NCBI GenBank assembly: GCA_964012805.1
Contig: CAXGUD010000021.1
Span: 11,572-75,571 of the forward strand
Source of the DNA: an uncultured Bacteriovoracaceae bacterium
GTDB lineage: Bacteria > Bdellovibrionota > Bacteriovoracia > Bacteriovoracales > Bacteriovoracaceae
Length of the DNA: 64,000 nucleotides
Reading direction: 5' to 3'
The notes below the pieces were generated by a model. That model made no database searches. It was not told the origin of the DNA and was given only the letters and a program-made list of their open reading frames with translations. Of the stretch, positions 13,611 through 50,146 are shown in pieces (the stretch's first letter is position 1; every line of letters begins with the position of its first letter). A program made the translations under genes and the position numbers.

Positions 13611-16355
13611 ATGAATCGTTTTTCTATGTTAATTCTTAGAATTATTGTAATTTTTGGGTTAATACTAATTAACAGAGAAGTTCATAGTTCTTCTTCTGAA
13701 GAAAAATGCTTTTCATGTAATATAAAAATTGAAAATTTAGATAAACCTTTCCCACTAACCGGTAATTGGGCCTTTACTAGAATCGATAACTTAGAAAATA
13801 AAAACCCCAAAGAAAAATTTGGAAAGAATTGGGTTCATATTAAGACTCCTGGTTCTTGGAAAAATGCCTATAATGATGAAAAGCTCTATAAGGTTGGCTG
13901 GTATAAAGGTAAATTTCATTTTTCAAAAGACCTAATCGGAAAAGACGTAAGACTTTTAATCGATACTTATATGGCTGAGACAAAGGTTTACTTGGACGGT
14001 AAGGCGGTTTATGAAAGGTCAGATAAAGATTCAGTAAACCGGTATTTTTCATTGCAGCCAATACCTATAAAATTTAAAATCACAAAAGAAAAGCATACCA
14101 TTGCAATTAGAATTAATTCAATCCTCATGCAAGGAATCTATCAACTCCCTTTTCATTTAAGACCCTACAAAAAGTTTGATCCAGAACTTTCTCTTTTACT
14201 TTTTTTTGGAGGTAATTTTAGAAGTATCTCCGGCTTTGCCTTTCTCCTTTTTGGTATTTTTTTAATATTTGTTTTTTATAAAACAAAAAATGAGTTTTAT
14301 CTATTTTCTGGGTTGAGTGGTTGCCTTATCTTTCCCTTTTTCTTTTTTAACCTAGACTTTGTAACAAGCTTTATTTCACCAAAAAATGCCCTAATCGCGT
14401 CATATTTTGGGATGCCTGGAATGATGTATACCCAGTTTAAAGTGGCGGAACTATTTTATAAAAAATTACCTAAACTAAGTGTCTTTTATAGTTTAACTGC
14501 TTCAATCGTTGCAATAATATTTTTATACCTTTTAATCGATTTTAATATAAAGATTTTCCATATCGTTAGAACCTTTTCCTTTTTAGTCGCCTTTTTAACA
14601 AGTTTTCTTTTGTTATTCATGACTGTTATGGGAATAAAAAACAAAGTAAGTGGAGCGAAAATATTTTTTATTGGCATAATGTGTTTAGTTATTTCAGTGT
14701 TTAATGATCTTTTCAACGCTCTAGGTTTAATCCAATCGTACGGCCTAGTCTCATTAGGGATGATAATATCAACCACATCTATTCTGATAGTTGCAGCCAA
14801 TAACTATACTGGAACCTATGTGGAAAACAAAAAACATCTAAAAGAAGTTACAGACCTTAAAGATAACTTGGAAGAAAAAGTAAAAGAAAAAACTTACGCT
14901 CTTGAACTGGAAATGGAAAGTACTGAAATTATGATGGAACAAATCTTCAATCAGAAAAAAAAGCGCGATTTACTGCTTGGTAGTTTGAGCGAGGGTTTTT
15001 TAACAATTAATAAAGAAGGAATTATTGAAGAAGGTGCGACAAGAGTCTCTCAAGACCTCCTGGAAGTTAACTTAACAGAGTCTGAGGTAGAAAAAATAGA
15101 AATATGGGATGTCTTATTCCAAGAGGGAGAAAAAAGAGACATTTTTAAAAAATGGATTGAGAAGGTTTTTGAAAGTAAATTTTCTTTTAGAGACCTAAAA
15201 GGACTTGCACCTAAAAAATTTGAAGGAACGAAAAAAAAACATATAGAATTAGAATTCAGACCAATTTATGAGAAAGAATCGAAAATAAAAGTAGATAAAA
15301 TAGTTATTATTGCATCAGACAAAACAAAAGAAGTAGAACTAAAAGAACAATTAAATAGAGATAAAGAAAATATTGAATTTATAAATAAATGCCTTCAAAA
15401 TCCTCTTGAGTTTGTGGATCTTATTTTTGACACACAAACTCTTATCCATGATTTTTATTTTTCCTATAAAGGGGAAAAAGAACTTCTTTTTAGAGGCTTT
15501 CATACTTTAAAAGCAAGATTTGGTCTTTTTGGTTTAAAAAAAATAACAAACTTAATAGATAATATAGAAACCGCCATTTCTGAAGAGAAAGTAGGAAACA
15601 TGAAAAGATCGATAAAATTATTGGATGAAAAACTGATATCCTTTATGAAAACAAATAGGATCATAGTAGAAGCTGCTAATAAAGCTCTCGTTGAAGAAGG
15701 AAGTGCCATTCAAGTCTCCGAAGTGTTAAAAAGAGCTAAACAATTTAACGTCACGTCAGATTACATAGATTATATAAAAAAAGAGTACCTTTATTCAGAT
15801 ATTAAAACAAAATTTGAGCGCTATGTTTCTTTAGTCAATGAATTAGCACAGAGGCAGGATAAATCAATAGAAGTAAAAATATCAGGTGAAGAAATATTGG
15901 TTGATACTAATAAATACTCAAAATTTATAAATAGCTCTATTCATATTTTTAGAAATATGGTTGATCATGGAATTGAACCTGAAGATGAAAGGATTGCTAA
16001 AACAAAACCGCAAAAAGGAAAAATTAAACTCCTCTTTAAAAAGGATAAAAGAGACTTTGAAATAGAAATACAAGATGATGGACAAGGGATTGACCTAGAT
16101 AAAATTAAGAAAAAAGCCCTCGATGATGGATTAAAATCAAAAGATGAAATATCAAATTTTAAAAAACAAGAAATATTGAACTTAATTTTTCTTCCTGGTT
16201 TTTCAACGAAAGAAGATGTCACAGATATATCTGGAAGAGGCGTGGGGATGGATGCAGTAAAAAAAGAAGTTATAGACCTTAACGGTGATATTCAAGTCAG
16301 CTCAAAGATAGATGAAGGAACAACCTTTGTCATTAAGTTACCTCTATTAAAATGA
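13611..16355 (+). CDS. Membrane sensor kinase HK-A: jelly-roll extracellular domain + 7TM + PAS-like + Hpt + CheA-type HATPase
   Basis: LTGNWAF/GWYKGKF sugar-binding-like domain, about 7 TM helices, FRGFHTLKA (Hpt), HIFRNMVDHGIE, DDGQGID, IFLPGFST, ISGRGVGMD; ends after HATPase, no CheW domain. Confidence 0.88.
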   Translation: MNRFSMLILRIIVIFGLILINREVHSSSSEEKCFSCNIKIENLDKPFPLTGNWAFTRIDNLENKNPKEKFGKNWVHIKTPGSWKNAYNDEKLYKVGWYKGKFHFSKDLIGKDVRLLIDTYMAETKVYLDGKAVYERSDKDSVNRYFSLQPIPIKFKITKEKHTIAIRINSILMQGIYQLPFHLRPYKKFDPELSLLLFFGGNFRSISGFAFLLFGIFLIFVFYKTKNEFYLFSGLSGCLIFPFFFFNLDFVTSFISPKNALIASYFGMPGMMYTQFKVAELFYKKLPKLSVFYSLTASIVAIIFLYLLIDFNIKIFHIVRTFSFLVAFLTSFLLLFMTVMGIKNKVSGAKIFFIGIMCLVISVFNDLFNALGLIQSYGLVSLGMIISTTSILIVAANNYTGTYVENKKHLKEVTDLKDNLEEKVKEKTYALELEMESTEIMMEQIFNQKKKRDLLLGSLSEGFLTINKEGIIEEGATRVSQDLLEVNLTESEVEKIEIWDVLFQEGEKRDIFKKWIEKVFESKFSFRDLKGLAPKKFEGTKKKHIELEFRPIYEKESKIKVDKIVIIASDKTKEVELKEQLNRDKENIEFINKCLQNPLEFVDLIFDTQTLIHDFYFSYKGEKELLFRGFHTLKARFGLFGLKKITNLIDNIETAISEEKVGNMKRSIKLLDEKLISFMKTNRIIVEAANKALVEEGSAIQVSEVLKRAKQFNVTSDYIDYIKKEYLYSDIKTKFERYVSLVNELAQRQDKSIEVKISGEEILVDTNKYSKFINSSIHIFRNMVDHGIEPEDERIAKTKPQKGKIKLLFKKDKRDFEIEIQDDGQGIDLDKIKKKALDDGLKSKDEISNFKKQEILNLIFLPGFSTKEDVTDISGRGVGMDAVKKEVIDLNGDIQVSSKIDEGTTFVIKLPLLK

Positions 16356-16462
16356 CTTAATACAGGTAACACTAAAGTAATTTTAAAAGAAACTTTTTTT
16401 AAGAATTTTTTTCAAACTTTCTAACAACCGACATGGGAAAAAGATTATAAAAAATAGGATGT

Positions 16463-19267
16463 TTAACCCTTAATAGAAATTGAAAATTGAGTACCGACAC
16501 CTTTTTCAGTACTAATATCGATTTCACCACCAAGTTTCTCAATATTTGTGCTAACAACATCCATTCCCACACCTCTTCCTGAAAGCTCACTTACCTCATC
16601 TTTTGTTGATAAACCTGCTTTAAAAATGAGCTTAAGCTTTTCTCCCTCACTCATATTTTGGACTTCGTCACTTGAAACGATGCCATTTTCAATGGCCTTT
16701 TTGGTTACGAGATCTGAGTCAATTCCTGCTCCATCATCCTTTATATTTATTCCATAACCATTAGAATTCTTCTTCACACTAATGATGATATTTCCCGTTT
16801 CGTTTTTATTTTCTTTAACCCTTGTTTCGCTTCCTTCAATTCCGTGGTCTACAGAGTTTCTGACTAAGTGAATAAGACTGTCATTTAAGAGGTTTTGCTC
16901 ATCTTGGCTAATAAAGATATCATCACCCTCGACTTTAAAAGACACATTCTTTCCGGACTCTTCTGCCGTCTCATCAACCACTTTTTTAAACCCGGATAGA
17001 AAGTCTTTAAGAGGCGTTTTTAACAGATTAGTAAAATTAATATAAAGCTCTTTCATATCGTTAGTAGGCGAGTCTCCTATAACTTTATTAAGTGAGCTCT
17101 CAAGAGATGCTAAATTATCCTTATGAACTTCGTGGTACACAATTTCCCCTGCGCTACCATCTAGACTAATAGAAAAGACTTCTTCTGCCACTTTTATAAA
17201 ATAATCTAGGAGGTTTCTGATTTCGACTAATTCATTACAAACCTGTTCTCTTCCTTCTTCATTAAAATTTTCAAAGTCCTTTTTTATATCCTCAAGATCA
17301 CTTTCTGCCCTATGAATAAGCTCACTTAATAGCGTTGCTCCAAAACCTCGAGCATTACCTTTTAAAGTATGAAGATGTCTGAATACGGTATCAAAATTCT
17401 TTTTATCTATTTCTTGACCACTCTTTTTATGCATTATTTGAAGAGACTCATCGACTAGGAAGTCTGAATTTCCTAAAAACATTTTTAACTCTTTAGAGTG
17501 AGCAGCTATTCCTTTTCCATCATGTGGTGCCAATTCATGAAGTACCCTAGACCTTTTATTCGATTCGGCTTGAGTTTTAGCCACTTGGGCCTCTAAGGCC
17601 ACTTTTTCTGTAATGTCTTCACATGAAAACATAATTTCTTTTATATCTTCATCAAGTCCCCAAATTGGATTAGGAAGAACTGAGATGATCCTTTCTTCGC
17701 CTTTTACATTTATAGTTGTTTTATGGATAAAATAACTTTCATTTAGGTCCCATTGAAGATCATTCCCACCAATGGATGTTTCAAGGGCTGATTTTAAGTT
17801 CCCAAATTCTTCTGACTGAGGATCAATATTGGCATATAAAGTTTCATAGACGGTCTTACCCGCGATTTCTGTATCAAAAAGTGTATTTGAGTAATCACTA
17901 ATCGCTTTATCCTGAATAACACCAAACAAATCAACTGAAAAAACCGCCTGACTCATATTATGGAGAAGGTTACTAACAGAGTTTTTCTCTTCAGCTAATT
18001 CAACAGTTCTTTCTTCAACTTTTATTTCTAGATTATCTTTAAGTTCTGTAACTTCTTTAAGGTTTTTTTGATTATCAAGATAAGTTTTAGCAAAGTTTTT
18101 AGCACTTAAATAAAGGACAACGAAAATTAAGATCATAAAACCAAATTGAACTAGGTTATAACCATTAATTATTGAAACTGCACTTAAAACGGAATAACCT
18201 GAAAAAATCCCAAGGGAGATTTGTCCAAAAAGGAGCGGACCGAAATCAGTCCCAAAAGGTTTCCGATCCCTCAACATGAGAGTAATTAAAATTATTTGAT
18301 TTGGTATGGCCGTCGCGAAGCCCAACTTTCTAAAAGTTAAAAAGAGACCCTGATGATCGACCGGATTAATAAGAAAAATAAAAACAAATGAACATATGCC
18401 ACAAACAATGGCTGGCGTAAGCCAATACCACTTAAATTTTATATAGTGCCTCACAAAAAGTGCTGAGTAAATAGACGAAGGTAGAAGTGTGGCGTAAAAA
18501 AGAGAAGCTGAAGCATTCTCTCCTATAAATCTATTGAAAAGGCCTGCCCATGCAATAAGTGAAATCCCACAAACAATACCCATAAATGAGGGAACTTTAT
18601 AAAAAGATTCTTTCGTTTTAAGAAAAACAAATAAAAATAAAAGCCCTGCCATAAAAGCAGCAGCGCCACCCACAATTAAAATATCAGTTAAGAGAAAGTC
18701 CCAGAGGTTTATAAAAAAATCATTTTCTTTATAGGCCCTTAACTGAAATGGTTTAGCGTGAAAGCCTTTCATAAGGAAGGTATCAAATCTAGCGGTTAAT
18801 GTGTGGACTTTTTTAGTAATCGTAAAAGAGGCAACCATTCCGCCTGTAGTAATATTCTCTTTTTTAGACTTAAGTTCCCCCTGAGAAAGAATTAATTTCC
18901 CATCAAGATAAAGCTCAAACTCAGGCCAAAAGGTAACAGCATACAAATTCACTTTTTGACCAATTAGCTTTTCATTAAAATTGAGGATTCTTTTGTGCCA
19001 ACCTACTGTATATAGCTTTTTATCTCCGTAAAATTTTCCCCACGCAGCAGGTAACTTGACAACCCTCCACGAATCCAAATTTATATTATTTTTTGAATTT
19101 TCTTTTTTATCATCTCTAGTGAAAAGCCACTTCCCGGAAAGTTCAATAGGCTTATCTAAGGAATTAATTTGTAAGGTCGTTTCTTTTATTTTAGCACTGC
19201 TTTCCTCTCCAAAAAGATTCGTTCCAGAAACTAATAAAATGAGCGAAATGAGGATTAATTTTGTCAT
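16463..19267 (-). CDS. Membrane sensor kinase HK-B: jelly-roll domain + 7TM + PAS-like + Hpt + CheA-type HATPase
   Basis: LSGKWLF/GWHKR, TM block, FRHLHTLKG, HLVRNSVDHGIE, DDGAGID, LSGRGVGMD; no CheW domain. Confidence 0.88.
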   Translation of the reverse strand: MTKLILISLILLVSGTNLFGEESSAKIKETTLQINSLDKPIELSGKWLFTRDDKKENSKNNINLDSWRVVKLPAAWGKFYGDKKLYTVGWHKRILNFNEKLIGQKVNLYAVTFWPEFELYLDGKLILSQGELKSKKENITTGGMVASFTITKKVHTLTARFDTFLMKGFHAKPFQLRAYKENDFFINLWDFLLTDILIVGGAAAFMAGLLFLFVFLKTKESFYKVPSFMGIVCGISLIAWAGLFNRFIGENASASLFYATLLPSSIYSALFVRHYIKFKWYWLTPAIVCGICSFVFIFLINPVDHQGLFLTFRKLGFATAIPNQIILITLMLRDRKPFGTDFGPLLFGQISLGIFSGYSVLSAVSIINGYNLVQFGFMILIFVVLYLSAKNFAKTYLDNQKNLKEVTELKDNLEIKVEERTVELAEEKNSVSNLLHNMSQAVFSVDLFGVIQDKAISDYSNTLFDTEIAGKTVYETLYANIDPQSEEFGNLKSALETSIGGNDLQWDLNESYFIHKTTINVKGEERIISVLPNPIWGLDEDIKEIMFSCEDITEKVALEAQVAKTQAESNKRSRVLHELAPHDGKGIAAHSKELKMFLGNSDFLVDESLQIMHKKSGQEIDKKNFDTVFRHLHTLKGNARGFGATLLSELIHRAESDLEDIKKDFENFNEEGREQVCNELVEIRNLLDYFIKVAEEVFSISLDGSAGEIVYHEVHKDNLASLESSLNKVIGDSPTNDMKELYINFTNLLKTPLKDFLSGFKKVVDETAEESGKNVSFKVEGDDIFISQDEQNLLNDSLIHLVRNSVDHGIEGSETRVKENKNETGNIIISVKKNSNGYGINIKDDGAGIDSDLVTKKAIENGIVSSDEVQNMSEGEKLKLIFKAGLSTKDEVSELSGRGVGMDVVSTNIEKLGGEIDISTEKGVGTQFSISIKG

Positions 19268-19437
19268 AAAACTCTACTTATTTAATTTACACACTAGACA
19301 TCACTTTTCAATACCATTTTACTCAGACAATTCTAAACCATAATTCAAAAATAAAAAAAAAAAAAAGAAAAAAAATATTTTTGAAATACTTTTTATTTTT
19401 TAAACAAAATTACTCTAAATAATTCCATAAAAACCAC

Positions 19438-19824
19438 TTAGGAGTCACTACTAAATTTTTCAACAAGCAAATTTACTGTTCCTAAAAATGTCTCTTTTTT
19501 TATTGGTTTTAAAATCCAAGTTTTGATTCCTGCAAGCTTTCCCTTTTTTTTCATTTCTTTACTTGCATCTGTTGTAAGGATCATAATAGGAGCTTTTGTC
19601 ATATTTTCATCAAATATTTTTTTGGCCATTTCTAGCCCATTCAGCTCAGGCATATGAAGGTCGGATACAATTAAGTCAACCTTTCCACCCTCTTGCTTTA
19701 AAATCTCAATTCCTTCAAGTCCATTAGATGCTGAAACAACGGTGTATCCCCCTTTTTCTAAATCTTCTACTAGTTTTTCCCGATACTCTACAGTATCCTC
19801 AACTAGCAAAACTTTTTTACCCAC
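19438..19824 (-). CDS. Stand-alone receiver (CheY-like)
   Basis: VLLVED, SDLHMPELNG, LTT, WILKP; 16 bp downstream of HK-C. Confidence 0.92.
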   Translation of the reverse strand: MGKKVLLVEDTVEYREKLVEDLEKGGYTVVSASNGLEGIEILKQEGGKVDLIVSDLHMPELNGLEMAKKIFDENMTKAPIMILTTDASKEMKKKGKLAGIKTWILKPIKKETFLGTVNLLVEKFSSDS

Positions 19825-19840
19825 AACAGACCTCCGTTGA

Positions 19841-22462
19841 TCATTTTTCTGGTATTGTTATTTGAAATTTTGTCCCTTTTGAGACAGTGGAAGAAACTTT
19901 AATTTGTCCTCCCATTTTTAGTATCATATCCTTAACGGCATCCATTCCCACACCTCGACCGCTAATCTCAGAAACACCCTCTTTCGTGCTAAGAGAAGGT
20001 AAAAAGATAAGGTTTAATTTATCTGCCTCTTTCATATTTTCGTCTTTTATGGCTCCTATCTCTAAAGCCTTTTTATAAAGCTTTCCAGAATCAATGCCGC
20101 TCCCATCATCCTCAATATCTATTTTTAAGAAGCGTCGATTTTTTTCATTTTCTTTTGAACAAGTAATAACTAAACTTCCTGATTCTTGCTTTCCTCTTTT
20201 CTTTCTTTCTGCGGGCGCTTCGATACCATGATCCAATGAATTCCTCACAATATGAGTGAGAACCCCTCTTAGGTCCTGGGCCTTTTTTGTATCAATTAAA
20301 TCATCATCTCCATTTACAATCAAAGAGACTTTTTTCCCTAAATCTTCCGACATCTCTTCTATATTTTCCTGGAATGATTTCATTAAGGACAAGAGAGATT
20401 CATTATTAATTCTTTCAAATACCTTTTCGAAATTATCTTTATCAAGTTTCCCTTTTTCTTGAAGATTCCAAATTTCTTTTTTAACCCAAGTAATGTTTTC
20501 GGTAGGAACGCCCTCTTCGATTGATTGATTTAATTTTTCACTATAAATTTTTATATTTTTTAGAATTTCGTCTAACTCTTTTTTAATTTCCAAAGTCGAA
20601 TTAGTTATACTAACTTTGACATCTGGCTTTTCAAGCACACCAGCAACCTTATTTTCTTTAATTTTTTCTAAAACGGAATCTATCTTCCCAAAAACCTCAT
20701 TTTCATTTATTGCCAAACAAAACTTTGAAAAATTAGTAAATTCATCTTCCAAAAAGTTGATATAACCTAGCCAATTGTCTGTTTCATCAAAATTATTAAA
20801 TTTTTCGTATTTTTGTCCCATATCTTTTAAAATGTCACTATTTACATTAAATCCCATTCTTAGTTGTTCGTTTATAACTCGAACATATCTAAATAATGTT
20901 CCATGGACTTTATGAAGTTCTTTTTCCAATTTTAAAATAAATTTTTTATTATAAACAATTTCTTTATGGATTACCCCCGACACATCATCTTCTAGTTTGT
21001 GGACTATATCTCTTATTGTTTTTAAATTTCTAGATCCCCCCTTAATAGTATGTAAATTCCTGAAGATATAGTTCAGATGAGGAAGGTACTCTTCTCTCTT
21101 TTCTAATTTCCAATTTTTTCTCAGAATATTCATGCATTCGATTATTAACCCAAAGTTTTGATTCATAACCTTAAACAAATCTTTCCTTGTTCCGAAATCG
21201 ATCGCTTCCTGCATAATCTTTAATTGTTCATCTTTTTTCGATAGCTCTTCTTCTTTTCTTACTTTTTCGGTTACATCCTCAACAACATAGAGAATATATT
21301 CTAATTCCTCTTCATCATTGTAAATGGGATCATGAACAGAATGAATAATTCTTTTCCTATCATTAATAGTTAAACTTAAAACCTCGGGAAGAATATGGCC
21401 TACAGCAAACCACTGAATTTGATCTTCTCCAAAGCTTACATTAAATACGGAACAAATTTCACTATAGAGGATGCTTTTTTTGTCTATATCTCTATAAATT
21501 ATATCCATTACATTTTTGCCTAAAATATCCTCACCAAATACATCTTTTGTAAAATCAGATACAGGTCCCACGATTTGTTGATTCTCATTAACTTTAAATA
21601 CAGCTTGAGACATATTGTGGAGTAGTTTCGTTACGTTATTTTTTTCTTGATTCAATTCCATTGTTCTTTCATCTACAATGGACTCTAGGTTTTCAGCATA
21701 ATCTTTTAGCTTGGCATGTGCACTTTTTAAATTTCCTTTCATATCATTAAAGGAATCTGTTAAATCTTGTAATTCATCATTCTTGTTACCTCTCATTCGA
21801 TCTAGCTCTAAATCAGGCCCTGATAAATCGTTTAAATCAATCCTTTCTGCATAGACTGCCATTGCTTTAATATGCTTGGCCACCAGAAAACGAAAAATAA
21901 GAAAGATAGAAATCGCTAAAAATAAAACCTGAGACATTTGAATAATTACAAAATTTATTATTTGCTTCTTAATTTTATCCTTTGCAAGTTGTAGCGTGGA
22001 GTAAAGAAAAAGGTGTCCTACAAACTCACCTTCTTTATCGTTTGAATCTTCTTCAAAATAAACTATTTTTATCTTTTTACTAGGACCTAAACTTCTTCTT
22101 TCTTTCTTACTCATATTTTTTAAGGATTCTTTAACAATGTTATAAGTGTCCTCGGTTTCATCCTCAAGTCTTACTTCTACCTCGACAACACCTTCGACAT
22201 TTAAAATCCCTTGTAAAGTCTGATTTATTTGGTCTTCATCTTCTGTGTAGATAGACATTGAAAGTGTTTTGATCAAGCCAGTTGTAACGTCAGTCATTGT
22301 ATCTTCAACTCGCTTCATTTCTTTTTGATAATCTTGTGTGATGATAACTGACGAAGTTATTGAGGCGACAAAAACAGTAACGAATAAAATAAAAAAAATC
22401 ATCTTGGTTGCTATTGATGATTTATTCTTATCATTCCTCATTTCCTTATCCTTCATCAACAA
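19841..22462 (-). CDS. Membrane sensor kinase HK-C: 2TM periplasmic sensor + HAMP + PAS-like + Hpt + CheA-type HATPase
   Basis: Two TM helices, HAMP (DELQDLTDSFNDM), FRNLHTIKG, HIVRNSLDHGIE, ISGRGVGMD; no CheW domain. Confidence 0.88.
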   Translation of the reverse strand: MLMKDKEMRNDKNKSSIATKMIFFILFVTVFVASITSSVIITQDYQKEMKRVEDTMTDVTTGLIKTLSMSIYTEDEDQINQTLQGILNVEGVVEVEVRLEDETEDTYNIVKESLKNMSKKERRSLGPSKKIKIVYFEEDSNDKEGEFVGHLFLYSTLQLAKDKIKKQIINFVIIQMSQVLFLAISIFLIFRFLVAKHIKAMAVYAERIDLNDLSGPDLELDRMRGNKNDELQDLTDSFNDMKGNLKSAHAKLKDYAENLESIVDERTMELNQEKNNVTKLLHNMSQAVFKVNENQQIVGPVSDFTKDVFGEDILGKNVMDIIYRDIDKKSILYSEICSVFNVSFGEDQIQWFAVGHILPEVLSLTINDRKRIIHSVHDPIYNDEEELEYILYVVEDVTEKVRKEEELSKKDEQLKIMQEAIDFGTRKDLFKVMNQNFGLIIECMNILRKNWKLEKREEYLPHLNYIFRNLHTIKGGSRNLKTIRDIVHKLEDDVSGVIHKEIVYNKKFILKLEKELHKVHGTLFRYVRVINEQLRMGFNVNSDILKDMGQKYEKFNNFDETDNWLGYINFLEDEFTNFSKFCLAINENEVFGKIDSVLEKIKENKVAGVLEKPDVKVSITNSTLEIKKELDEILKNIKIYSEKLNQSIEEGVPTENITWVKKEIWNLQEKGKLDKDNFEKVFERINNESLLSLMKSFQENIEEMSEDLGKKVSLIVNGDDDLIDTKKAQDLRGVLTHIVRNSLDHGIEAPAERKKRGKQESGSLVITCSKENEKNRRFLKIDIEDDGSGIDSGKLYKKALEIGAIKDENMKEADKLNLIFLPSLSTKEGVSEISGRGVGMDAVKDMILKMGGQIKVSSTVSKGTKFQITIPEK

Positions 22463-22865
22463 AAAAAATTTTAAAATCTAGTTATTAATTGATTCTTTTT
22501 ATGAGATCATATTTTATCAAACCCCTTTTTTTTTTTACCTTTTTTTTAAAAAGTTCTTTTTAATAACTTGAAAAAATCTATTTTTTCAAAAAAGAAATTA
22601 TTTAAAGTGACTATTCTGAGAAGAGCTTGTCTGGGAGTTCGTACGCTTTAAAATTATTTTCTAGTTAAAATAATTTAACTTTACTTTTTAAATATATAAA
22701 ATTTGTTTAAGCAGCTAAAGAAAAGAGAATTAGAATAATTTAGAAATACGCCTTTTCTAATTTTTTTTGACTTAAAAAAAAGTAGCAAAATAAAAAGGCA
22801 TATCAAGATAAAAAACCAACCATTACCGAAAAATAATTTTAAGGAACAATTAGTTTACCCTCTTT

Positions 22866-23186
22866 TTATTGGAGTTCCTCCAAATTTAATTCAAGCTTTT
22901 CACCCAACCAAATAGCGTGTTCAGTATGGTCTAAAAAATCATTCCCAGTCACTGGGTGAATAAAGACAGTTAATCCTTTCCTATTTTCTAAAAGCCAAAT
23001 CATCATATTTGTTAATTGGTCTTTTGAAAACAAAAGCTGACAACTCCATTTTGGGTGGGGTCCGATAGGTTTTTCATGCATTCTACCAACGACGACGCCA
23101 TCTTGGTTGTAAGCCTTTTTTACTAACTTTTGGGCATTTCCGAAAGTTTCTTTTTCGTAATATATGTGGGCATGAAATTTTTCCAT
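22866..23186 (-). CDS. DOPA 4,5-dioxygenase family protein
   Basis: FHAHIYY, PIGPHP, VFIHP, DHTEHAIWLG motifs. Confidence 0.9.
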   Translation of the reverse strand: MEKFHAHIYYEKETFGNAQKLVKKAYNQDGVVVGRMHEKPIGPHPKWSCQLLFSKDQLTNMMIWLLENRKGLTVFIHPVTGNDFLDHTEHAIWLGEKLELNLEELQ

Positions 23187-25473: not shown

Positions 25474-25638
25474 AGATAAATGAAATAATAAATATGTACG
25501 GAAAAACCAGAAGCAAACAAGGTTTTTTGATATTAAATGGTAACTCTTTAATCAAACATAAAGTGGACAAGATAGCTAAAGAGCTCCCTTTCGAAAACCG
25601 AAAAAATAGGAAATAATCAGCTATTTTTTTGGTATAAA

Positions 25639-28281
25639 ATGATCAAGTTTATCCTTTTTTTCTTAACACTTTTTTCAATATCTAGGCTTTTATTGGCTCA
25701 AGCTCCCCCTCTCATTTTAGTCGATGGAAAGAAGTTTTATGAAATTGGGCTTAACATCGATATTTTGGAAGACCCTACGGGAAAGTTGACGATTGATGAT
25801 ATTAATAGTCCTAAATGGGCGAGTAAGTTTAAAAGGTGTAAAGATAAGGTTCCTAATTTTGGTTTTTCAAAATCAACATTTTGGGCAAGAGTAAAAATTA
25901 AAAATAAAACCAGTGATCAGAGAGTCTGGGTCCTTTCTCAAAATTACAACCGCCAAAACTATGTTACCCTTTATAAAAAGGTTAATGAGAGTTGGGAATC
26001 TTTCTCTACAGGGGATCTCACTCCCTTTAAAACGAGGGAAATTCAAGGGAGAGAATTTAGTTTTAAAATAAAACCGAAAGAAAATACTCTTTACTTTATA
26101 AGAATCAAGGGCTCCTATAGTAAACTCCATTTAACCATTTCCTCTCTCCAATCTTTGATGCAAAAGAAGACCATTGATAATTTGATTTCAGGACTCTTTT
26201 TTGGTCTTGTCATCTCTGTAGCGCTTTATAATTTATTCATTTTTCTTTCAACAAAAAGCTTAAGTTATCTTTTTTACATCCTCTACGTCGTTTTTTGGGG
26301 AATTTTCCTATTTATAAAACAAGGACTTTCCCAAAGATTTTTAGCACCCGACTCCCTATGGATCTCAAACAAAGGCATAGTCTTTTTTGGCGCTTTTGGG
26401 TTATTTTTTTTGGTGCTTTTTACAATAAGCTTTTTAAGGCTAAAGGAATCTACGCCTAAACTTTATAGAGGATGCCAATGCCTTGCCTTCCTCTACTTTT
26501 TATTAATTACAGGAAGTTTTATTTTCGCTTACACTTTGAGTGCAAAACTCTTCATGTTCACTACTTCCTTTTTAGGTATCCCCTTGATCACTTTTTGCGG
26601 AATCTATAGAGTAAAAATGGATTACCGCCCTGCAAAGTATTTTCTCTTTGCTTTTTCCTCTGTCTTTTTGGGGGGGATAGTTGCAATCTTAATGACATTT
26701 GGACTTCTTCCAACCAATATTTTAACGAATCAAGCTATCTCTATTGGTGTCGCCCTTGAATTGACCATCCTCTCTATGGGTCTCGCTGATAGGTTCAACC
26801 TTATCCAAGAAGAAAATTTAAAACTTCAAAAAAACTACGCTAAAGACCTTGAAAGTGAGGTTGATCAAAAAACCAAAAAGATAAAAAGCCTTGTTGAAAA
26901 TTTAGGTCAGGGCTTTATGGTTATGGATAAAAAAGGCATTATTCTAGAAGGCGCTACACAAATTACGAAAGACTTCTTTTCTATAGACTCCGTTGGAAAA
27001 AACCTTTCTAGAGTTTTAAAGCTTGATGAAGAAAAAACTGACACCTTCAATAAATGGATTCAAAATGTCTACAGAGGTATTTTACCCTTTAAAGACTTGG
27101 AAATGTTAGGCCCCCAATCATTTAACTTAGACAATCGCCATATAGACCTAAATTACAGACCCATTTACGTTGAAGGGTCAAAAAGAAAAATTGATAAGGT
27201 TATTTGTATTGCCACTGATAAAACCCAAGAAATAAATCTTGAAAAACAGCTGGAATTAGATAAGCAACAAGCTTTCTTCATAAAGAATTGCCTTCAAAAT
27301 CCTGTTGAGTTTATTGATTTAATGGATGACACCTATGATCTTTTAGAACATTATCCAAGAACAAAAAATAATGAAAACGGAGGTCTTTTTAGACATTTCC
27401 ACACTCTTAAAGCGCGCTACGGTCAATTTGGAGTTAAGGACCTCACTTACTATCTTAACGAGGTAGAAACGGCTTTATCGAAAAAAAAACTTGATAGCTT
27501 AGATTCCAAAGTTAATCATTTTAAAAGAGAACTTGAAGAGTTTGTAAAAGAGAACAGACTTATTATTGAAGCTGCCAATAAGTTTATGATTGATGACGGT
27601 ACAGCTGTTGAAGTCTCAGAAATTTTAAAAGTGCTCGGCCGCCTCAAAACAAAACATAGAAAAAATCCTGCCCCCGCAATAGGTGAAGCCTTTTCTTATT
27701 TTTATGAAAATAGCTACCTTAAAGACATTAAAAGTAAATTTGATCGGTACAGGTATCTAATTAACGAATTAGCTGAAAAACAAGGTAAGGGTATAGACCT
27801 TAGTATTGGTGGTGATGAAATTAAAGTTGACATTAATAAATATTCTAGCTTTATAAATAGCTCCATCCACCTCTTTAGAAATATGGTCGATCACGGTATT
27901 GAAACTGAAGAAGAGAGAATAGAAAAAACAAAGCCTCAAAGAGGTCGTATAAAGGTAGACTTTAACAATAACGGCGACACCTTTATGATTCAAATGGTAG
28001 ACGATGGTGGTGGAATTGATCCTGAGAGGATAAAAAATAAAGTTCCCGAAGCGGGCCTAAAGTCTGAAGAAGACCTCAAAGAATTAAAAGAATCTGACAT
28101 CGTTGATTTAATTTTTCTTCCTGGTTTTTCAACGAAGGAAGAAGTCACGGATGTCTCAGGTCGAGGAGTAGGAATGGATGCTGTTAGAGAAGAAGTGGAA
28201 AGGCTTGGTGGGAGCATTTCGGTAACCTCTAAAATTGATGAGGGAACGACTTTTATGATTCAATTACCGGTTTTAAGCTAG
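25639..28281 (+). CDS. Membrane sensor kinase HK-D: 7TMR-DISM extracellular + 7TM + PAS-like + Hpt + CheA-type HATPase
   Basis: LEDPTGKLTI, NFGFSKSTFWAR, ALYNLFIF..SYLFY, LSMGLADR, FRHFHTLKA, HLFRNMVDHGIE, VSGRGVGMD. Confidence 0.9.
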   Translation: MIKFILFFLTLFSISRLLLAQAPPLILVDGKKFYEIGLNIDILEDPTGKLTIDDINSPKWASKFKRCKDKVPNFGFSKSTFWARVKIKNKTSDQRVWVLSQNYNRQNYVTLYKKVNESWESFSTGDLTPFKTREIQGREFSFKIKPKENTLYFIRIKGSYSKLHLTISSLQSLMQKKTIDNLISGLFFGLVISVALYNLFIFLSTKSLSYLFYILYVVFWGIFLFIKQGLSQRFLAPDSLWISNKGIVFFGAFGLFFLVLFTISFLRLKESTPKLYRGCQCLAFLYFLLITGSFIFAYTLSAKLFMFTTSFLGIPLITFCGIYRVKMDYRPAKYFLFAFSSVFLGGIVAILMTFGLLPTNILTNQAISIGVALELTILSMGLADRFNLIQEENLKLQKNYAKDLESEVDQKTKKIKSLVENLGQGFMVMDKKGIILEGATQITKDFFSIDSVGKNLSRVLKLDEEKTDTFNKWIQNVYRGILPFKDLEMLGPQSFNLDNRHIDLNYRPIYVEGSKRKIDKVICIATDKTQEINLEKQLELDKQQAFFIKNCLQNPVEFIDLMDDTYDLLEHYPRTKNNENGGLFRHFHTLKARYGQFGVKDLTYYLNEVETALSKKKLDSLDSKVNHFKRELEEFVKENRLIIEAANKFMIDDGTAVEVSEILKVLGRLKTKHRKNPAPAIGEAFSYFYENSYLKDIKSKFDRYRYLINELAEKQGKGIDLSIGGDEIKVDINKYSSFINSSIHLFRNMVDHGIETEEERIEKTKPQRGRIKVDFNNNGDTFMIQMVDDGGGIDPERIKNKVPEAGLKSEEDLKELKESDIVDLIFLPGFSTKEEVTDVSGRGVGMDAVREEVERLGGSISVTSKIDEGTTFMIQLPVLS

Positions 28282-29319: not shown

Positions 29320-29700
29320 TTGATAAATATACTTGTCGTAGATGACTCATTAACGATTCGAATTAAGTTTAAAGACTACCTAAGTGACCATGGCTTTAAT
29401 GTTCATGAGGCGTCGAATGGAATGGAGGCTTTGGAACTACTTAAGCGAAACTCTGAAATAAAACTTATTATATCGGATTTGAATATGCCTGTTATGGACG
29501 GAATGACTTTCATTGAATTTGTCAGGCAAGCTGAAAACGGGAAAGATATACCCATTATGATTTACTCCACAGAGCTTGATAAAAAATTGAAAGAAGATGC
29601 GAAAAAGCTTGGTGTTAATGCCTGGGTTTCAAAACCACTTGATCAAAGTAAAATATTAACAGCGATTAAAGGCCTTTTAGAGAAAAAGAGCAAAAGTTAA
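29320..29700 (+). CDS. Stand-alone receiver (CheY-like)
   Basis: ILVVDDS, SDLNMPVMDG, YSTE, WVSKP. Confidence 0.92.
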   Translation: MINILVVDDSLTIRIKFKDYLSDHGFNVHEASNGMEALELLKRNSEIKLIISDLNMPVMDGMTFIEFVRQAENGKDIPIMIYSTELDKKLKEDAKKLGVNAWVSKPLDQSKILTAIKGLLEKKSKS

Positions 29701-35580: not shown

Positions 35581-35985
35581 ATGAAAAAAGTCTTAATAAT
35601 TGATGACTCAGAATCCATAAGGTCTCAACTAAAAGAATCACTTCTTCAAAATGGCTCCTTTAATATTGTTGAGGCAGAAGATGGTGAACAAGGATATGAA
35701 ATCGCAAAAGAGAACCAAGACTGTAATCTTATCATTGTCGACCTTAATATGCCAAAGATGGGAGGAATAGAACTCCTTGAAGCTCTTGAAAAAAATGACA
35801 TCTGCCTCGATATCCCAAAAGTAATTTTTACAACAGAAACGCTAAAAGATGATAAAAATGCAAAAAAAATGAAAGAAGATGGAAAAAGACTTGGTGTAAA
35901 AACATGGTTTACCAAACCTTTAACAGATAAAAGAATTACTATTTTGATAAATACAATAGACCAGCTTATTAAAAAATATAATTAA
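35581..35985 (+). CDS. Stand-alone receiver (CheY-like)
   Basis: AAGGAG RBS, VLIIDDS, VDLNMPKMGG, FTTE, WFTKP. Confidence 0.92.
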   Translation: MKKVLIIDDSESIRSQLKESLLQNGSFNIVEAEDGEQGYEIAKENQDCNLIIVDLNMPKMGGIELLEALEKNDICLDIPKVIFTTETLKDDKNAKKMKEDGKRLGVKTWFTKPLTDKRITILINTIDQLIKKYN

Positions 35986-38803: not shown

Positions 38804-39193
38804 CTATACCTTAAAAAAGCCCAAAGCTTCCATAACTTTCAAAAATTTTTTCTCATTTATAGGTTTTAAAATCCAGCCCCTAAAGTTATGAATCTTAGTA
38901 AAGTCAAAAGTCTTTTTATTTGGAGTCTCTGTAGTTAGAAGAACCTTCACAATATCAATTCCCAACCCTTCTTTATCTAATTTAAGTAAGAGTTCTCCCC
39001 CATTCATTTTAGGCATATTGTAATCAGAAACGATGAGCGTTAATTGGTTAAGGTTATCTTTAATTTTTTTATAACCTTCTTCACCATCTGCAGCTTCAAC
39101 AACGCTATACTCCCGTTGCTTAAACCAATGACCTACTTTTGATCTTACTGCTTCAGAATCATCTATCACAATAACCATTTTCACATTGCTCAT
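38804..39193 (-). CDS. Stand-alone receiver (CheY-like)
   Basis: IVIDDS, SDYNMPKMNG, LTTE, WILKP; GAGG RBS before MSNVK at 39193; 5 bp upstream of the M28 gene. Confidence 0.9.
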   Translation of the reverse strand: MSNVKMVIVIDDSEAVRSKVGHWFKQREYSVVEAADGEEGYKKIKDNLNQLTLIVSDYNMPKMNGGELLLKLDKEGLGIDIVKVLLTTETPNKKTFDFTKIHNFRGWILKPINEKKFLKVMEALGFFKV

Positions 39194-39779
39194 CAAAGGT
39201 CCCCTCATATAAAAAATCAAAGTTTTCCAAACTTTATCACTTCCTATAAACATTAAACACTAGTGAAAGCATAATTTAAATAACTTATAATCATACTTAT
39301 ACTAAGAAACTATTAATTGGATCCTTACGAAAAACGCCTCTTTGTTTAACTTTAAAACTTCAAAGGCTTTATTGACCGACTATTTAAGTAGGCAAAGAAC
39401 TTAAAGATACTTTTTACAAAACTATCTTCCTCTTGAGATTAAGGAAAAGTGAGTTTTTGCTTTATTAGGTTAATAGCCAATCAAAGTAACAAACCTTTCT
39501 AATCTCCAATAATTAAAGATCTCTCTTCAAATACTTATAAAAACTTATGTCTTCTGATATAAGCCTGTATATATAAGATAATCCAAGACTCGAAATAAAG
39601 GTTATTTAGACTAAAGTTCTTTTATTTAAAAAATTTCATTTAAGGCCCCATTTTTAGGAGGCTCCTCTATAAATTTTTCTAAAATTCAATCACTTCTGGC
39701 AAAAATTTACTCATCGCACTAATATCACCAAGTCTTAAAAAACAATACAACTAACTACCTTTTCTTAGAAGGAGCATTA

Positions 39780-42191: not shown

Positions 42192-42214
42192 ATAATCAAA
42201 CCTAACCAAAACTA

Positions 42215-42251
42215 AATTAAAGGTTCCGACATTATACCGGAACCTTTAATT
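42215..42251 (+). terminator. Terminator-like hairpin
   Basis: aattaaaggttccg / cggaacctttaatt 14-bp inverted repeat after the 42191 stop. Confidence 0.75.
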
Positions 42252-42383
42252 CCCACACAACGCAAAAAAAGACTTTTTCTCTCAAGTAAACATTTTTTAA
42301 GAAAATAATCTTTAACTTTAAGCTTATAAACCGATTAGAATTAATAAATCCCAAATAGTTAAGTTATTTTTTTAAACAAAGGA

Positions 42384-44280: not shown

Positions 44281-47022
44281 TTAATTTAGAAGAGGCAATT
44301 CTATAACAAAAAGTGTTCCTTCACCAACTCTGGAATGAACAGAAATAGACCCTCCAAGTTTTTCTACTTCTGTTTTTACTGCATCTAAACCAACTCCTCT
44401 ACCGGAAACATCTGTTAACTCCTCTTTTGTACTAAAGCCAGGCATAAAAATCATTTCTACAAGTGATTGTTGATTTATATCTTCAAGATCTTCTTCTCTC
44501 TTGAGACCTTTTTCTATTAACTTACCTTTAATACTTTCAGGATTGATTCCAGAACCATCATCAAAGAATTTAACAATAAAAGAATCACTCTTTAAACGAA
44601 AGTCTATTTCAATTTTACCTACTTCATCTTTTGTTAAGTTAATTCTTTCTTTTTCAGGTTCAATACCATGGTCGACCATATTTCTAAAAAGATGTATGGT
44701 GTTTTTAATAAAGTCAGAATACTTCTTTTCATCCACTTTAATTTCATCTCCATAAATATGAAGGTCTACCTTTTTCCCTTGTTTTGAGGCTAGTTCAAAG
44801 ATTAAAGGTCGGTACTTTTCGAACTTTTTCTTAATATCAGTCAAAAGATAATTTTTCATTAATAAATTCATATAATTCTTATCTATCTTATAGCCCTCTG
44901 TATTGTTAATGATATCAGAAATTTGAACAGTACTCCCTTCATCAGCCAAAAAACGGTTAGCAGCTTCCACTATTAACCTGTTTTCCTTTAAAAAACTTTT
45001 CAACTGAAATTCAAACTTTTTTACCTCACTTTCTAAAGGGTCTAAATTATTTTCAGATATAGTGGTCTCAATAGTATTTAATAAATGAGTAATACTCCTA
45101 AGTCCATATTGAGAATATCTCGCTTTGAAAGTATGAAAAGTTCTGAAAAGAGTTTCTGGTTTATTCTCTCTCCCTTCATAATAGGAATCTAAAAATTGAT
45201 AAGTATCATCTAGTAAATCAACGAATTCCGCAGGACTTCCCAAGCAGGAAGTAACAAAATCTGTTTTTTCTTTATCGATTTCTAACTGCTTCTTTAGTTC
45301 TAGCTCATTAGTTTTATCTGAAGCAATTAGGATTAGCTTATCAACCTCTAACCCTTTATTTTCATCCTCATTAAAAATTGGTCTAAATTCAAGTTCAATA
45401 TACTTATCATGCTGCCCCTCAAAAATCTTAGGTGCTAGTTGATTAAGGTCTCTAAATTGTATTTTTCCTTCAAAAACATTTTTAACCCATGATTTGAAAG
45501 TTGTATTTTTTTCAGGTTGATCTTTAAAAAGAACATCCCAAATTTTTAATCCATCTGGGGAGTCCTTTAACAAATGAGTTTCTAAAAGATTTTCTGTTAT
45601 CTTTGTCGTTCCTTCTTGTATGATACCTTCGGAGTTGAAGGTAAGATAACCTTGCCCCAAACTTCCAAGTAATTGATCTCGAGATTTCTTCTGTCTGGAG
45701 GTTTCCTCTAATACTATTTTTAAAGCATCTTTCTCCTTTTTCAATTCATCGGTTTTTTCAAGTACTTTTTTATGGAGGCTTACTGCATGGTTTTTAAGAA
45801 CTTTTTTAGCTTCAGCTTCTTTTTCATATGCCTGCTCTTTCATAAGATTAAACTTATCTGCTAAACCTAATGACAAAAGAATAAGTTCCAAAGCGTTCCC
45901 TATAATGGGGGCTTGTTTTACTATAAAAATAGAAGGTAAAATACCCGTTGTCATTAGGCCCATAACAATTGAACCTATCAACGTGCATAGGAAGGCCATG
46001 AAAAAATAGATCGCAGGTCTATAATAAAATACCCTGTAAAATCCAATAACAAGAATCACAACTGAGAAAGTAAAACCATTTATTGACTGATATTTTAAAT
46101 TAAAAGAGTAATCAAAAAAGAAAGCAGAAGGGACCAAAGCCAAACAAAAAATACTTAAAAAAATTAGGAAACGATATATTTTGGGCATTTCCTCATCTAA
46201 TTTTAAAAACTTAATTGTAAATAAATAGAGAAAGAACCCCATTAATCCAATTAAGACCGTAATTCCATTATTACTCATTATAGGAAAGTTTGGAAAAAGG
46301 AACCGTTGACTGAAACCTTGATACAAGGAAAGCCCAAGACCATAAGAAGCTACATGTAAAACATAAAAAAGGTAACTTAATTCTTTAGTAGAAATAAAGA
46401 TAAAAGCATTGTAAAAAATCATCGAAAGAACCAGACCAAAAAAAAGGCCCAAAATATAATTATCCTTGGTTTGATTTTTTGCAAATTGAATTGGACTGGA
46501 TATAGAGAGGTCCATTTGGTTGGCCGTTCCTTTTATTTTTACATAGTAAACAGACTCAATAGTGGGTTTGATCTTAAAAGTAAAAGACCTTGCTTCCACT
46601 TCTCTCGAAGCGAAGGGAAACGTATCACCTGTTTTAAAACCAACCCATTTTCCTTTCCCTAAATTTTTAAAAACCTCAATTTCGTCTTGAAGATAATAAT
46701 TATGAGATAAAAGCCAAACCTTTTGATCAATCGATTTATTTTGTAGTTTTAACCTGGCCCAAAAAGTAGATTTTGAATAACCAAAGTTTAGTTTTTTACC
46801 ACTTCTTTTTTCAAATTTATCTTGCCAGGAGGGTTTTAAAATATCTTTTATACTTAATTTTCCAGTAGAGTCCTCAAATATATCTAGGTTCTTTGATAGA
46901 TCATAATGACCAACCTGATCTGTTAAAATCAAAGCTTTTGATGTGTCCCTTGCACCGATATCCAAGATAGGAAAGAAAAAAGAAGTGATAGAAATTATTA
47001 GAGTTCTTATAAGAATAAACAA
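44281..47022 (-). CDS. Membrane sensor kinase HK-E: 7TMR-DISM extracellular + 7TM + PAS-like + Hpt + CheA-type HATPase
   Basis: FEDSTGKLSI, NFGYSKSTFWAR, LSLGLADK, FRTFHTFKA, HLFRNMVDHGIE, VSGRGVGLD. Confidence 0.9.
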   Translation of the reverse strand: MFILIRTLIISITSFFFPILDIGARDTSKALILTDQVGHYDLSKNLDIFEDSTGKLSIKDILKPSWQDKFEKRSGKKLNFGYSKSTFWARLKLQNKSIDQKVWLLSHNYYLQDEIEVFKNLGKGKWVGFKTGDTFPFASREVEARSFTFKIKPTIESVYYVKIKGTANQMDLSISSPIQFAKNQTKDNYILGLFFGLVLSMIFYNAFIFISTKELSYLFYVLHVASYGLGLSLYQGFSQRFLFPNFPIMSNNGITVLIGLMGFFLYLFTIKFLKLDEEMPKIYRFLIFLSIFCLALVPSAFFFDYSFNLKYQSINGFTFSVVILVIGFYRVFYYRPAIYFFMAFLCTLIGSIVMGLMTTGILPSIFIVKQAPIIGNALELILLSLGLADKFNLMKEQAYEKEAEAKKVLKNHAVSLHKKVLEKTDELKKEKDALKIVLEETSRQKKSRDQLLGSLGQGYLTFNSEGIIQEGTTKITENLLETHLLKDSPDGLKIWDVLFKDQPEKNTTFKSWVKNVFEGKIQFRDLNQLAPKIFEGQHDKYIELEFRPIFNEDENKGLEVDKLILIASDKTNELELKKQLEIDKEKTDFVTSCLGSPAEFVDLLDDTYQFLDSYYEGRENKPETLFRTFHTFKARYSQYGLRSITHLLNTIETTISENNLDPLESEVKKFEFQLKSFLKENRLIVEAANRFLADEGSTVQISDIINNTEGYKIDKNYMNLLMKNYLLTDIKKKFEKYRPLIFELASKQGKKVDLHIYGDEIKVDEKKYSDFIKNTIHLFRNMVDHGIEPEKERINLTKDEVGKIEIDFRLKSDSFIVKFFDDGSGINPESIKGKLIEKGLKREEDLEDINQQSLVEMIFMPGFSTKEELTDVSGRGVGLDAVKTEVEKLGGSISVHSRVGEGTLFVIELPLLN

Positions 47023-49640: not shown

Positions 49641-49777
49641 AGGTTAAACCTTTCAAAAAAGAAATAATTAAGTTGATTTTTATAATTTTAAACTTTAGTA
49701 CTTTAAAAAACCGTAACTCTTTTATATCAAGCAAAAATTAATTGGGATCATTTTAAATAAATTCAACCTATTTTTAA

Positions 49778-50146
49778 TTACTCTAAAACCTTGCTTGCGG
49801 CTGCCAAAATAAGATCTTCCGTTATAGGCTTTATTATCCAGCATTTTACAAATTTATATTGATAGAGTTCATTCTTTTTTTCCTGATTTGTTTCTGTCGT
49901 TAGCATAATGGTTTTGATTTCTTTTATATTTTCATTTTTCGCAATATTATGGACGACCTCAATTCCACCCATTATTGGCATATTAACATCTAGAATTAAT
50001 AAGTCATAACTCTGATCTTTCTCAAGCAAATGGATGCACTCCTGACCATTTTCCGCAAGGTTTACTTGATAACTTTCTTCGAAATATCTTTGGAGAGATG
50101 ACCTTATAGTCAGAGAATCATCTACAATTAAAACCTTTTTTTTCAT
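49778..50146 (-). CDS. Stand-alone receiver (CheY-like)
   Basis: VLIVDDS, LDVNMPIMGG, LTTE, WIIKP. Confidence 0.92.
   Translation of the reverse strand: MKKKVLIVDDSLTIRSSLQRYFEESYQVNLAENGQECIHLLEKDQSYDLLILDVNMPIMGGIEVVHNIAKNENIKEIKTIMLTTETNQEKKNELYQYKFVKCWIIKPITEDLILAAASKVLE

Follow-up and report, generated by a model that had tools for sequence, protein, structure and literature searches.

Genes of a Bacteriovoracaceae contig as a probable part of a class III histidine kinase and CheY4-like receiver family expanded throughout a genus

Kinase and receiver genes of the window

The window analysed here is a stretch of 64,000 nucleotides from an uncultured Bacteriovoracaceae bacterium (contig CAXGUD010000021.1, positions 11,572 to 75,571 of the forward strand). 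A first-pass annotation had described five sensor kinases with CheA-type cores and five single-domain receivers in it, and had read them as one dispersed system that works without CheW proteins and methyl-accepting chemotaxis proteins (MCPs). All ten open reading frames (ORFs) lie where they had been placed, and the motifs given for them were recovered from the ORF list and by a motif scan. As argued below, the ten genes are probably members of a far larger, genus-wide family of class III kinases and CheY4-like receivers.

The kinase at 13611..16355 (+ strand, 914 amino acids) consists of a signal helix, a GH2-like beta-sandwich, a seven-transmembrane (7TM) region, a coiled coil, a PAS domain, an Hpt domain (His631) and a CheA-type ATPase. 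The kinase at 16463..19267 (- strand, 934 amino acids) combines a GH2-like ectodomain and a multi-transmembrane region with PAS, Hpt (His633) and the same type of ATPase. In the kinase at 19841..22462 (- strand, 873 amino acids), a CHASE5-like domain lies between two transmembrane segments and is followed by HAMP, PAS, Hpt (His471) and the CheA-type ATPase; its CHASE5 and HAMP matches in Pfam are weak. The kinases at 25639..28281 (+ strand, 880 amino acids, His588) and 44281..47022 (- strand, 913 amino acids, His630) both carry a 7TMR-DISMED2 ectodomain and a 7TM region ahead of PAS, Hpt and CheA-type ATPase. The length range first given, 870-930 amino acids, holds for four of these proteins and is slightly exceeded by the 934-residue one.

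The motifs H-T-[LIF]-K, RNxxDHGIE and SGRGVG[ML] are present in all five kinases, and each protein ends a few residues beyond the ATPase. Pfam recognised HATPase_c in all five, 7TMR-DISM_7TM in three (one under the cut-off), Hpt in two and DISMED2 in two; HisKA had no match in any of them. The phospho-acceptor histidine sits in the Hpt domain, approximately 150-270 residues N-terminal of the N box. These results bore out the proposed class III architecture, that is, a sensor, an Hpt domain and a CheA-type ATPase with no CheW domain. Likewise upheld was the absence of chemotaxis partners from the window: CheW, MCP, CheR, CheB and CheX had no Pfam match among the 53 ORFs scanned of the 66 listed, the remaining 13 overlapping longer ORFs.

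The 13611 kinase was modelled with AlphaFold from an alignment of 25 sequences (mean pLDDT 77, pTM 0.44). The model, in which the domain folds are firmer than their arrangement, contains the signal helix, the beta-sandwich, seven transmembrane helices, a long coiled coil, a PAS-like fold, a helical bundle round His631 and the ATPase. The modelled ATPase aligned with CheA P4 at Z 22 (rmsd 2.4 over 180 residues), whereas class I kinases reached Z 16 at most. Consistent with this, the ATPase is approximately 40% identical to Thermotoga maritima P4, and the best NCBIfam matches of the window kinases are CheA models that span the ATPase alone. Between Hpt and ATPase the model has three short helices (683-727) that partly align with the CheA residues preceding P4; H-kinase_dim was matched solely in the CheA of contig C58, described below.

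A GH2 glycosidase chain aligns with the same model at Z 13.4 over 132 residues (model range 44-377), and in sequence the 13611 ectodomain weakly matches sugar-binding domains of the GH2 type (E 0.009). The 16463 ectodomain shares 37% identity with that of 13611 and has its own best PDB match at E 0.41. The jelly-roll and 7TMR-DISM ectodomains noticed in the first-pass annotation thus exist, and the DISMED2 and GH2-like domains are plausibly carbohydrate-binding; judging from these resemblances, prey glycans may be among the ligands, as had been suggested.

The five receivers all combine [TS]T[ED] with WxxKP and are referred to here as W-type. The receiver at 19438..19824 (- strand) is directly downstream of the 19841 kinase. 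That at 29320..29700 (+ strand) reads STE and WVSKP, and its best PDB match is the Vibrio cholerae CheY4-type chains 4H60/4HNR. The others have TTE, with WFTKP at 35581..35985 (+ strand; start in the ORF scan at TTG 35557), WILKP at 38804..39253 (- strand; a Met codon near 39193 is the probable start) and WIIKP at 49778..50146 (- strand).

Inventory across the genome

The genome of origin (G000; Bacteriovoracales, 4.47 Mb in 130 contigs, 100% complete, 1.8% contaminated) contains 74 ORFs with a CheA-type ATPase, 73 of which lack a CheW domain. In line with the placement in Bacteriovoracales, the kinase has named relatives in a record of that order (L015) and in a Halobacteriovoraceae protein (P0006). 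The lineage-specific expansion that had been proposed is therefore far larger than the window showed. Among the CheW-less ORFs, 69 exceed 500 amino acids and four are short or split, and one PAS block, its fold supported by a fold search with a model of a homologous block, is common to 69 of the 73. The Hpt histidine is retained in 67 of 69 kinases, and 63 of 69 have at least two transmembrane segments. Together with 41 W-type receivers, 18 CheX-like proteins and 19 receptors without an ATPase, the kinases take up 6% of the DNA of G000.

Genome copy numbers, trees and window density reject a self-contained five-by-five system, as the ten genes had first been read. On the tree, the window kinase cores occupy at least three positions: one starred clade unites three of them, and the remaining two branch elsewhere. 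The cores are 35-62% identical to each other. The window receivers are 29-40% identical pairwise and mostly group with paralogues outside the window, and a sixth W-type receiver lies just beyond the window edge (C21:9068). Five kinases per 64 kb, a density also attained on contigs C2 and C12, compare with an expectation of 1.0.

A subfamily of 21 kinases (1100-1360 amino acids) carries tandem Hpt domains and forms one clade (support 98/86), the two histidines being kept in 21 of 21 and 20 of 21 members. Side forms also occur: at C4:109624, C32:8663, C6:56108 and C33:23381, class I kinase and receiver domains precede a class III core, or the order is REC-PAS-Hpt-ATPase. Such hybrid or cytoplasmic forms would tie the network to other pathways.

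The one CheW-bearing ORF, on contig C58, is a CheA of the order REC-Hpt-P3-P4-CheW, with the P3 dimerisation domain, and adjoins a CheW protein as the sole CheA-CheW pair in G000. This CheA and its 293-amino-acid CheW protein (L001:12277-15306) have a closely conserved orthologue at locus L014, despite the lack of a detected MCP in G000. For MCPs, Pfam matched 0 of 13 candidates, while the same search was positive in 8 of 14 control genomes; a profile built from the MCPs of seven relatives gave a best E of 0.27, and tblastn gave no match at E 0.1. We therefore rejected the idea of hidden MCPs in G000, and kinases without chemoreceptors, as first proposed for the window, extend to the whole genome as searched.

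G000 keeps flagellar switch and export genes, eight flagellin-type genes and MotAB; its FliM bears the N-terminal peptide LSQDEVDALL, and a PilT family match reaches 470 bits, above the cut-off. CheR-domain proteins are present as well (L053:6791-8581, L054:3-2606, L056:3143-6160 and L034:366-3455), comprising a stand-alone type, a CheB-CheR fusion and CheR-kinase hybrids. An S-helix-like motif precedes the PAS domain in 23 of 69 kinases, and PMC4574943 reports S-helix methylation for Bacillus cereus RsbK. We considered S-helix methylation as a route of adaptation and set it aside: the motif and the CheR-domain proteins both exist, but no link was found.

Distribution among relatives

Three genomes of genus g1 gave 70, 45 and 61 kinase matches, counts that include their few true CheAs, and two of the three are approximately 70% complete; 28 other relatives gave 0-4. 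Receiver-pattern matches (31, 20 and 32 in genus g1, 0-2 in the 28 others) and CheX matches (10, 12 and 4 compared with 0-3) follow the same distribution. In a 400-genome sample of the phylum, the other genomes listed had at most five receiver-pattern matches, mostly chance. A search of 200 family genomes scored 16 candidates per genome. When the outsiders with the most matches were examined again in full, 18-23 CheW and 19-42 MCP matches accompanied their 12-19 CheA-type matches. An expansion elsewhere in the family was rejected because this company of CheW and MCP marks mostly ordinary che systems. Among the genomes sampled, the expansion is thus confined to genus g1.

The congener G002 has a che cluster at L010:8878-17661 (C68), encoding CheA, CheY, a CheR-sized ORF, a HEAT protein, a CheB-sized ORF, a triple CheW and an MCP with two signalling domains. 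It lies two genes from a class III kinase.

W-type receivers, motor-type CheYs and CheX-like proteins

Tryptophan occupies the signature position in 41 of the 87 single-domain receivers of G000 and in none of the 74 receiver domains of multidomain proteins, so the W-type signature is not a matter of chance. The W-type profile scored 122 bits against CheY4-type chains and 97 against CheY3-type chains. Its best PDB match was 4H60/4HNR, which we take to be V. cholerae CheY4, in keeping with the description of W101 in PMC3774744.

Motor-type CheYs form a separate clade of six receivers (support 100) and are accordingly distinct from the W-type proteins. One of them scores 143 bits against CheY3-type chains and sits in an operon conserved in genomes G005 and G015; the five further paralogues are on contigs C17, C14, C7, C15 and C1. 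The operon (L022:1831-7016 on contig C3; also L037, L045 and L046) encodes a large acidic protein, an HD-domain protein, the motor-type CheY, a 172-amino-acid Hpt-like protein and CheX. The Hpt-like protein is without the usual His motif, and its C-terminus resembles the CheY-binding tail of CheZ. In G000 and G001 the operon is flanked divergently by a W-type receiver, three kinases and two CheX genes, an arrangement not present in G005 or G015.

Of the 41 W-type receivers, 11 have a kinase within 300 bp; the same holds for 2 of the 46 remaining single-domain receivers (p=0.005) and for 2.5% of genes overall. In the window, the 19841 kinase and the 19438 receiver are separated by 17 bp, and paralogous pairs on contigs C53 and C9 group together in both the kinase and the receiver trees. 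The 19438 receiver is thus likely the cognate partner of the 19841 kinase, the only window pair with evidence of pairing.

A local profile found 18 CheX-like proteins in G000, 17 with ExxN and four within 800 bp of a kinase; none is in the window. In most of the CheX-like paralogues on contigs C3, C1, C14, C39 and C4, acidic residues near the C-terminus give way to hydrophobic ones at the very end; this is possibly a tail for docking on receivers.

Receptors without an ATPase

Nineteen ORFs (approximately 17 full length; contigs C27, C24, C4, C12, C18 and others; L017 and L019-L021) carry kinase-like sensors and a PAS domain, followed by a helical domain of 250 residues with neither an ATPase nor a conserved histidine. 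The helical domain had no Pfam match in the eight members scanned. Its profile was collinear with the tandem Hpt region of the long kinases (alignment probability 84%, 231 columns); controls gave 0.1% for the reversed profile, no more than 2.7% across 15 block shuffles, and 0.2% when the short kinases were used. For the PAS domain, the best match was a long kinase in 15 of 16 cases. A fold search with a model of the helical domain (pTM 0.82) returned PAS chains and generic bundles but no Hpt, so an Hpt origin rests on the profile alignment and the affinity of the PAS domains, and an ESM Atlas search gave no usable match. From these resemblances, we read the 19 receptors as probable catalytically dead derivatives of the tandem-Hpt kinases. 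They number 16, 10 and 22 copies in the three genus g1 genomes, with none in the 28 others, and a library of 1.84 billion held just 50 representatives of the family, none with an ATPase match.

Sensor shuffling, conservation and soundness of the assembly

Four sensor classes, assigned to 50 of 77 rows, require 20 changes on the ATPase tree compared with a minimum of 3, and starred branches force 4-7 changes in each class. Between the 13611 kinase and a two-Hpt kinase on contig C13, the sensors share 63% identity while the cores differ. Sensors have thus been swapped repeatedly among cores.

The 44281 kinase is 80% identical to its G001 orthologue, with 0.12 non-synonymous (dN) and 1.35 synonymous (dS) substitutions per site, and the 49778 receiver is 82% identical (dN 0.10, dS 1.23). 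The 38804 receiver has a syntenic G001 orthologue with 59% identity. In three marine metagenome runs, which belong to three studies and are not flagged as the source of the assembly, contigs cover all 30 bins of positions 13500-30000 in the window; this stretch is therefore not an assembly artefact. Close to the start of the 25639 kinase gene, contigs of two other metagenomes have one extra base in a short C run (25705-25709), which breaks the frame early; this variant is a null or switchable allele in the population. In one metatranscriptome, short contigs, mostly 95-99% alike, lie over the 16463-19841 cluster, one of them spanning the 19841/19438 junction; since these contigs show neither strand nor level, they give a weak hint of expression. 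Almost no sequence words of the locus occurred in three further RNA runs.

Between two of the kinases (22866-25473) lie genes for a DOPA 4,5-dioxygenase, a Rieske-domain protein with an unannotated remainder of 430 amino acids and a regulator with helix-turn-helix and cupin domains. The stretch 39780-44177 encodes a protein of the transglutaminase-elicitor family, whose tail is a long Lys/Glu coiled coil, and after it a member of the phospholipase D family; size-matched ORFs occur in the same order in G001 (L038). The two proteins are possibly secreted predation enzymes.

Sigma-28-type promoter sites

Two window kinases are preceded by promoter-like sites of the sigma-28 (FliA) type, at 13547..13571 (+ strand, 39 bp upstream of the 13611 kinase) and at 25577..25602 (+ strand, 36 bp upstream of the 25639 kinase). 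Genome-wide, the Bdellovibrio FliA consensus published in PMC3627812, with up to two mismatches and 15-65 bp upstream, was matched for kinase genes in 18 of 54 cases and for other genes in 99 of 1553 (p ~1e-8). Further upstream the same search gave no excess (1 of 54 kinase genes per distal interval). A matrix from seven flagellin promoters placed sites before 14 of 48 kinase genes and 134 of 1361 others (p 2e-4). An adjusted regular expression gave 21 of 54 compared with 62 of 1509, figures that are partly circular as it was tuned after the kinase sites had been seen; we therefore rely on the flagellin matrix and the published consensus. Sigma-54 control was rejected (0 of 67 kinase genes with a sigma-54 site). 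The sigma-28-type sites suggest that the kinases are expressed in the swimming phase.

Interpretation and alternatives

On balance, we favour the view that the ten window genes are members of the genus-wide class III kinase and CheY4-like receiver expansion, which we predict to work as a kinase-to-receiver phosphorelay with reset by CheX. In such a relay, a ligand would bind the ectodomain of a swappable membrane module, and the coiled coil and PAS domain would pass the change along in a dimer. The CheA-type ATPase would then phosphorylate the Hpt histidine of the same kinase, a W-type receiver would accept the phosphate and bind a protein target, and CheX-like phosphatases would reset the receivers; the network is probably active in the swimming phase. 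These steps, from dimer signalling to phosphotransfer, are predictions. Many-to-few convergence is likely, because most kinases have no adjoining receiver and approximately 70 kinases face 41 receivers. The output is the least certain part of this explanation. Receivers without an output domain act by binding proteins, and the W-type receivers are therefore expected to steer behaviour, be it attachment, type IV pili or, by way of a relay, the motor-type CheYs, rather than to switch the motor directly. The network may stand in for ordinary chemotaxis in the swimming phase.

Several findings weigh against parts of this view. With G000 in 130 contigs, one che cluster could be absent from the assembly, and 38 HisKA matches represent possible alternative phosphate donors. 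Simple replacement of chemoreceptors fits poorly with the congener G002, in which 61 kinase matches coexist with a complete MCP/CheA/CheW/CheR/CheB cluster containing one MCP; the expansion therefore did not require the loss of chemoreceptors. The absence of MCPs from G001 is weak evidence at 72% completeness, and several relatives have neither MCPs nor the expansion. More than 1 kb separates 28 of the 41 W-type receivers from any kinase. The sigma-28 site is absent from three of the window kinases, and W-type receivers are not clearly enriched for such sites (3 of 30 by the tuned pattern, 6 of 30 by the published consensus). In relatives' loci, the tuned pattern gave 6 of 16 compared with 4 of 61, but the loose published consensus 7 of 16 compared with 15 of 61. 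Moreover, PMC3627812 presents FliA as a global regulator that controls most attack-phase genes in Bdellovibrio, so that a sigma-28 site does not single out motility.

The possible outputs, which are not mutually exclusive, differ in how well they agree with these data. Receptor-array-free flagellar chemotaxis, in which the kinases replace MCP arrays and feed the motor through the six motor-type CheYs, directly or by relay, would account for a genome that has no detected MCP and retains the FliM peptide, flagellins, MotAB and those CheYs. It would likewise fit the W-type receiver, three kinases and two CheX genes beside the motor-CheY operon in G000 and G001 (although not in G005 or G015), and the sigma-28 sites before a third of the kinase genes. 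We nevertheless consider it doubtful: the kinases have no evident adaptation system linked to them, the motor CheYs could receive phosphate from the C58 CheA instead, G002 retains its MCP cluster, and the W-type receivers resemble CheY4, which, according to PMC3774744, failed to bind FliM in pull-downs. Indeed, the nearness of the W-type receivers to CheY4, the separate motor-type family, the C58 CheA-CheW pair and the congener's MCP cluster all speak against the "chemotaxis-like" output of the first-pass annotation. Alternatively, and tentatively, the network could modulate prey attachment or motility by type IV pili, a role that has been put forward for class III kinases generally. It draws on the PilT match, on the co-occurrence of class III kinases with a pilus marker reported in PMC6501615 and on glycan sensing by DISMED2 in RetS; linkage of kinases or receivers to pilus genes was not found, although no systematic test was made. 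PilT is common in the phylum, so its co-occurrence says little.

Many parallel, insulated kinase-receiver pairs that act on cyclic di-GMP enzymes, transcription or further kinases, and that have no particular tie to motility, would explain why some pairs are co-duplicated. They would also suit the diversity of the receivers (29-40% among the window five) and their individual conservation across species (up to 99%), which fits distinct partners. This is unlikely, because kinases outnumber receivers and sensors have moved freely between cores, a better fit to shared outputs. That the expansion is largely neutral or in decay, or that it arose in assembly, is highly improbable, even though four of the 73 kinase ORFs of G000 are short or split, G001 also has a split copy and the 25639 kinase has a frame-breaking allele in two metagenomes. 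Of 69 kinases, 67 retain the histidine, and orthologues have a much lower dN than dS. The assembly is 1.8% contaminated, the pattern recurs in two congeners, and the locus is covered by three independent DNA runs. The window cores, only 35-62% identical, are paralogues and not duplicated contigs.

A bolder synthesis, which we offer as speculation and think rather unlikely in its entirety, is that a flagellated marine genus of Bacteriovoracales has rebuilt taxis so as to find prey with no receptor arrays. Approximately 70 self-sensing CheA-type kinases with shuffled ectodomains, including the tandem-Hpt subfamily, and some 19 dead receptors acting as inhibitors, decoys or sensor-controlled phosphatases would converge via CheY4-like receivers and CheX on motor-type CheYs or pili, under a swimming-phase sigma factor.

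Whatever the output of the favoured phosphorelay, class III kinases stand between two-component sensors and CheA, and here is a lineage with 6% of its genome in a class III network, no detectable chemoreceptor, and a motor and motor CheYs that are kept. A long-standing question, whether directed motility or prey finding can work without MCP arrays, hence becomes testable. A kinase-by-receiver phosphotransfer matrix is feasible because the parts are soluble domains that can be expressed in Escherichia coli; the organism is known here from assembled sequence alone. The shuffled ectodomains form a catalogue of what a marine predator-relative senses, and the His-less tandem-Hpt receptors represent a domain family without a Pfam match.

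Comparison with known systems

Class III histidine kinases (HKIII) were reportedly treated by Wuichet and Zhulin in 2010 and by Adebali and co-workers in 2017, the latter said to have noted a single-domain response regulator in the HKIII neighbourhood. A CheX phosphatase is associated with HKIII, and proteins of this architecture are frequent among ESM Atlas clusters from several phyla. The kinases studied here agree with HKIII in having their own sensor, an Hpt domain, a CheA-type ATPase and no CheW, and in sharing a genome with single-domain receivers, CheX and PilT. They differ in their approximately 70 copies per genome, the 21-member two-Hpt subfamily and the 19 ATPase-less derivatives; furthermore, most kinases here have no neighbouring receiver, a flagellum is present with no MCP detected, and sigma-28-type sites are enriched. 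In the literature searched, we found no account of an expansion of this size, of a two-Hpt subfamily or of dead receptors, although the supplements of the defining HKIII papers may list copy numbers, and no experimental study of any class III kinase. With CheA-CheW-MCP systems the kinases share the fold and sequence of the ATPase and the Hpt phospho-acceptor. In contrast to those systems, they have no P5/CheW domain, no P3 match, no MCP and a sensor on the kinase chain; PMC6963811 describes class III kinases as lacking a dimerisation domain. The W-type receivers share TTE and WxxKP with CheY4 of V. cholerae cluster III.

The DISMED2 and 7TM input module of two of the five window kinases is also that of RetS and LadS of Pseudomonas, and RetS senses mucin glycans via DISMED2, according to bioRxiv 10.1101/2020.03.31.018614. 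However, RetS has a class I core, whereas here the module would drive an Hpt-CheA core, with GH2-like or CHASE5-like ectodomains swapped in. The ATPase-less receptors are comparable to DivL (named in PMC12471899) and to inhibitory partner kinases, for example in RetS-GacS, as kinase-derived receptors without normal catalytic function. Unlike these, they have lost the whole ATPase and both tandem-Hpt histidines, and they form a multi-gene family present in genus g1 alone among the 31 genomes.

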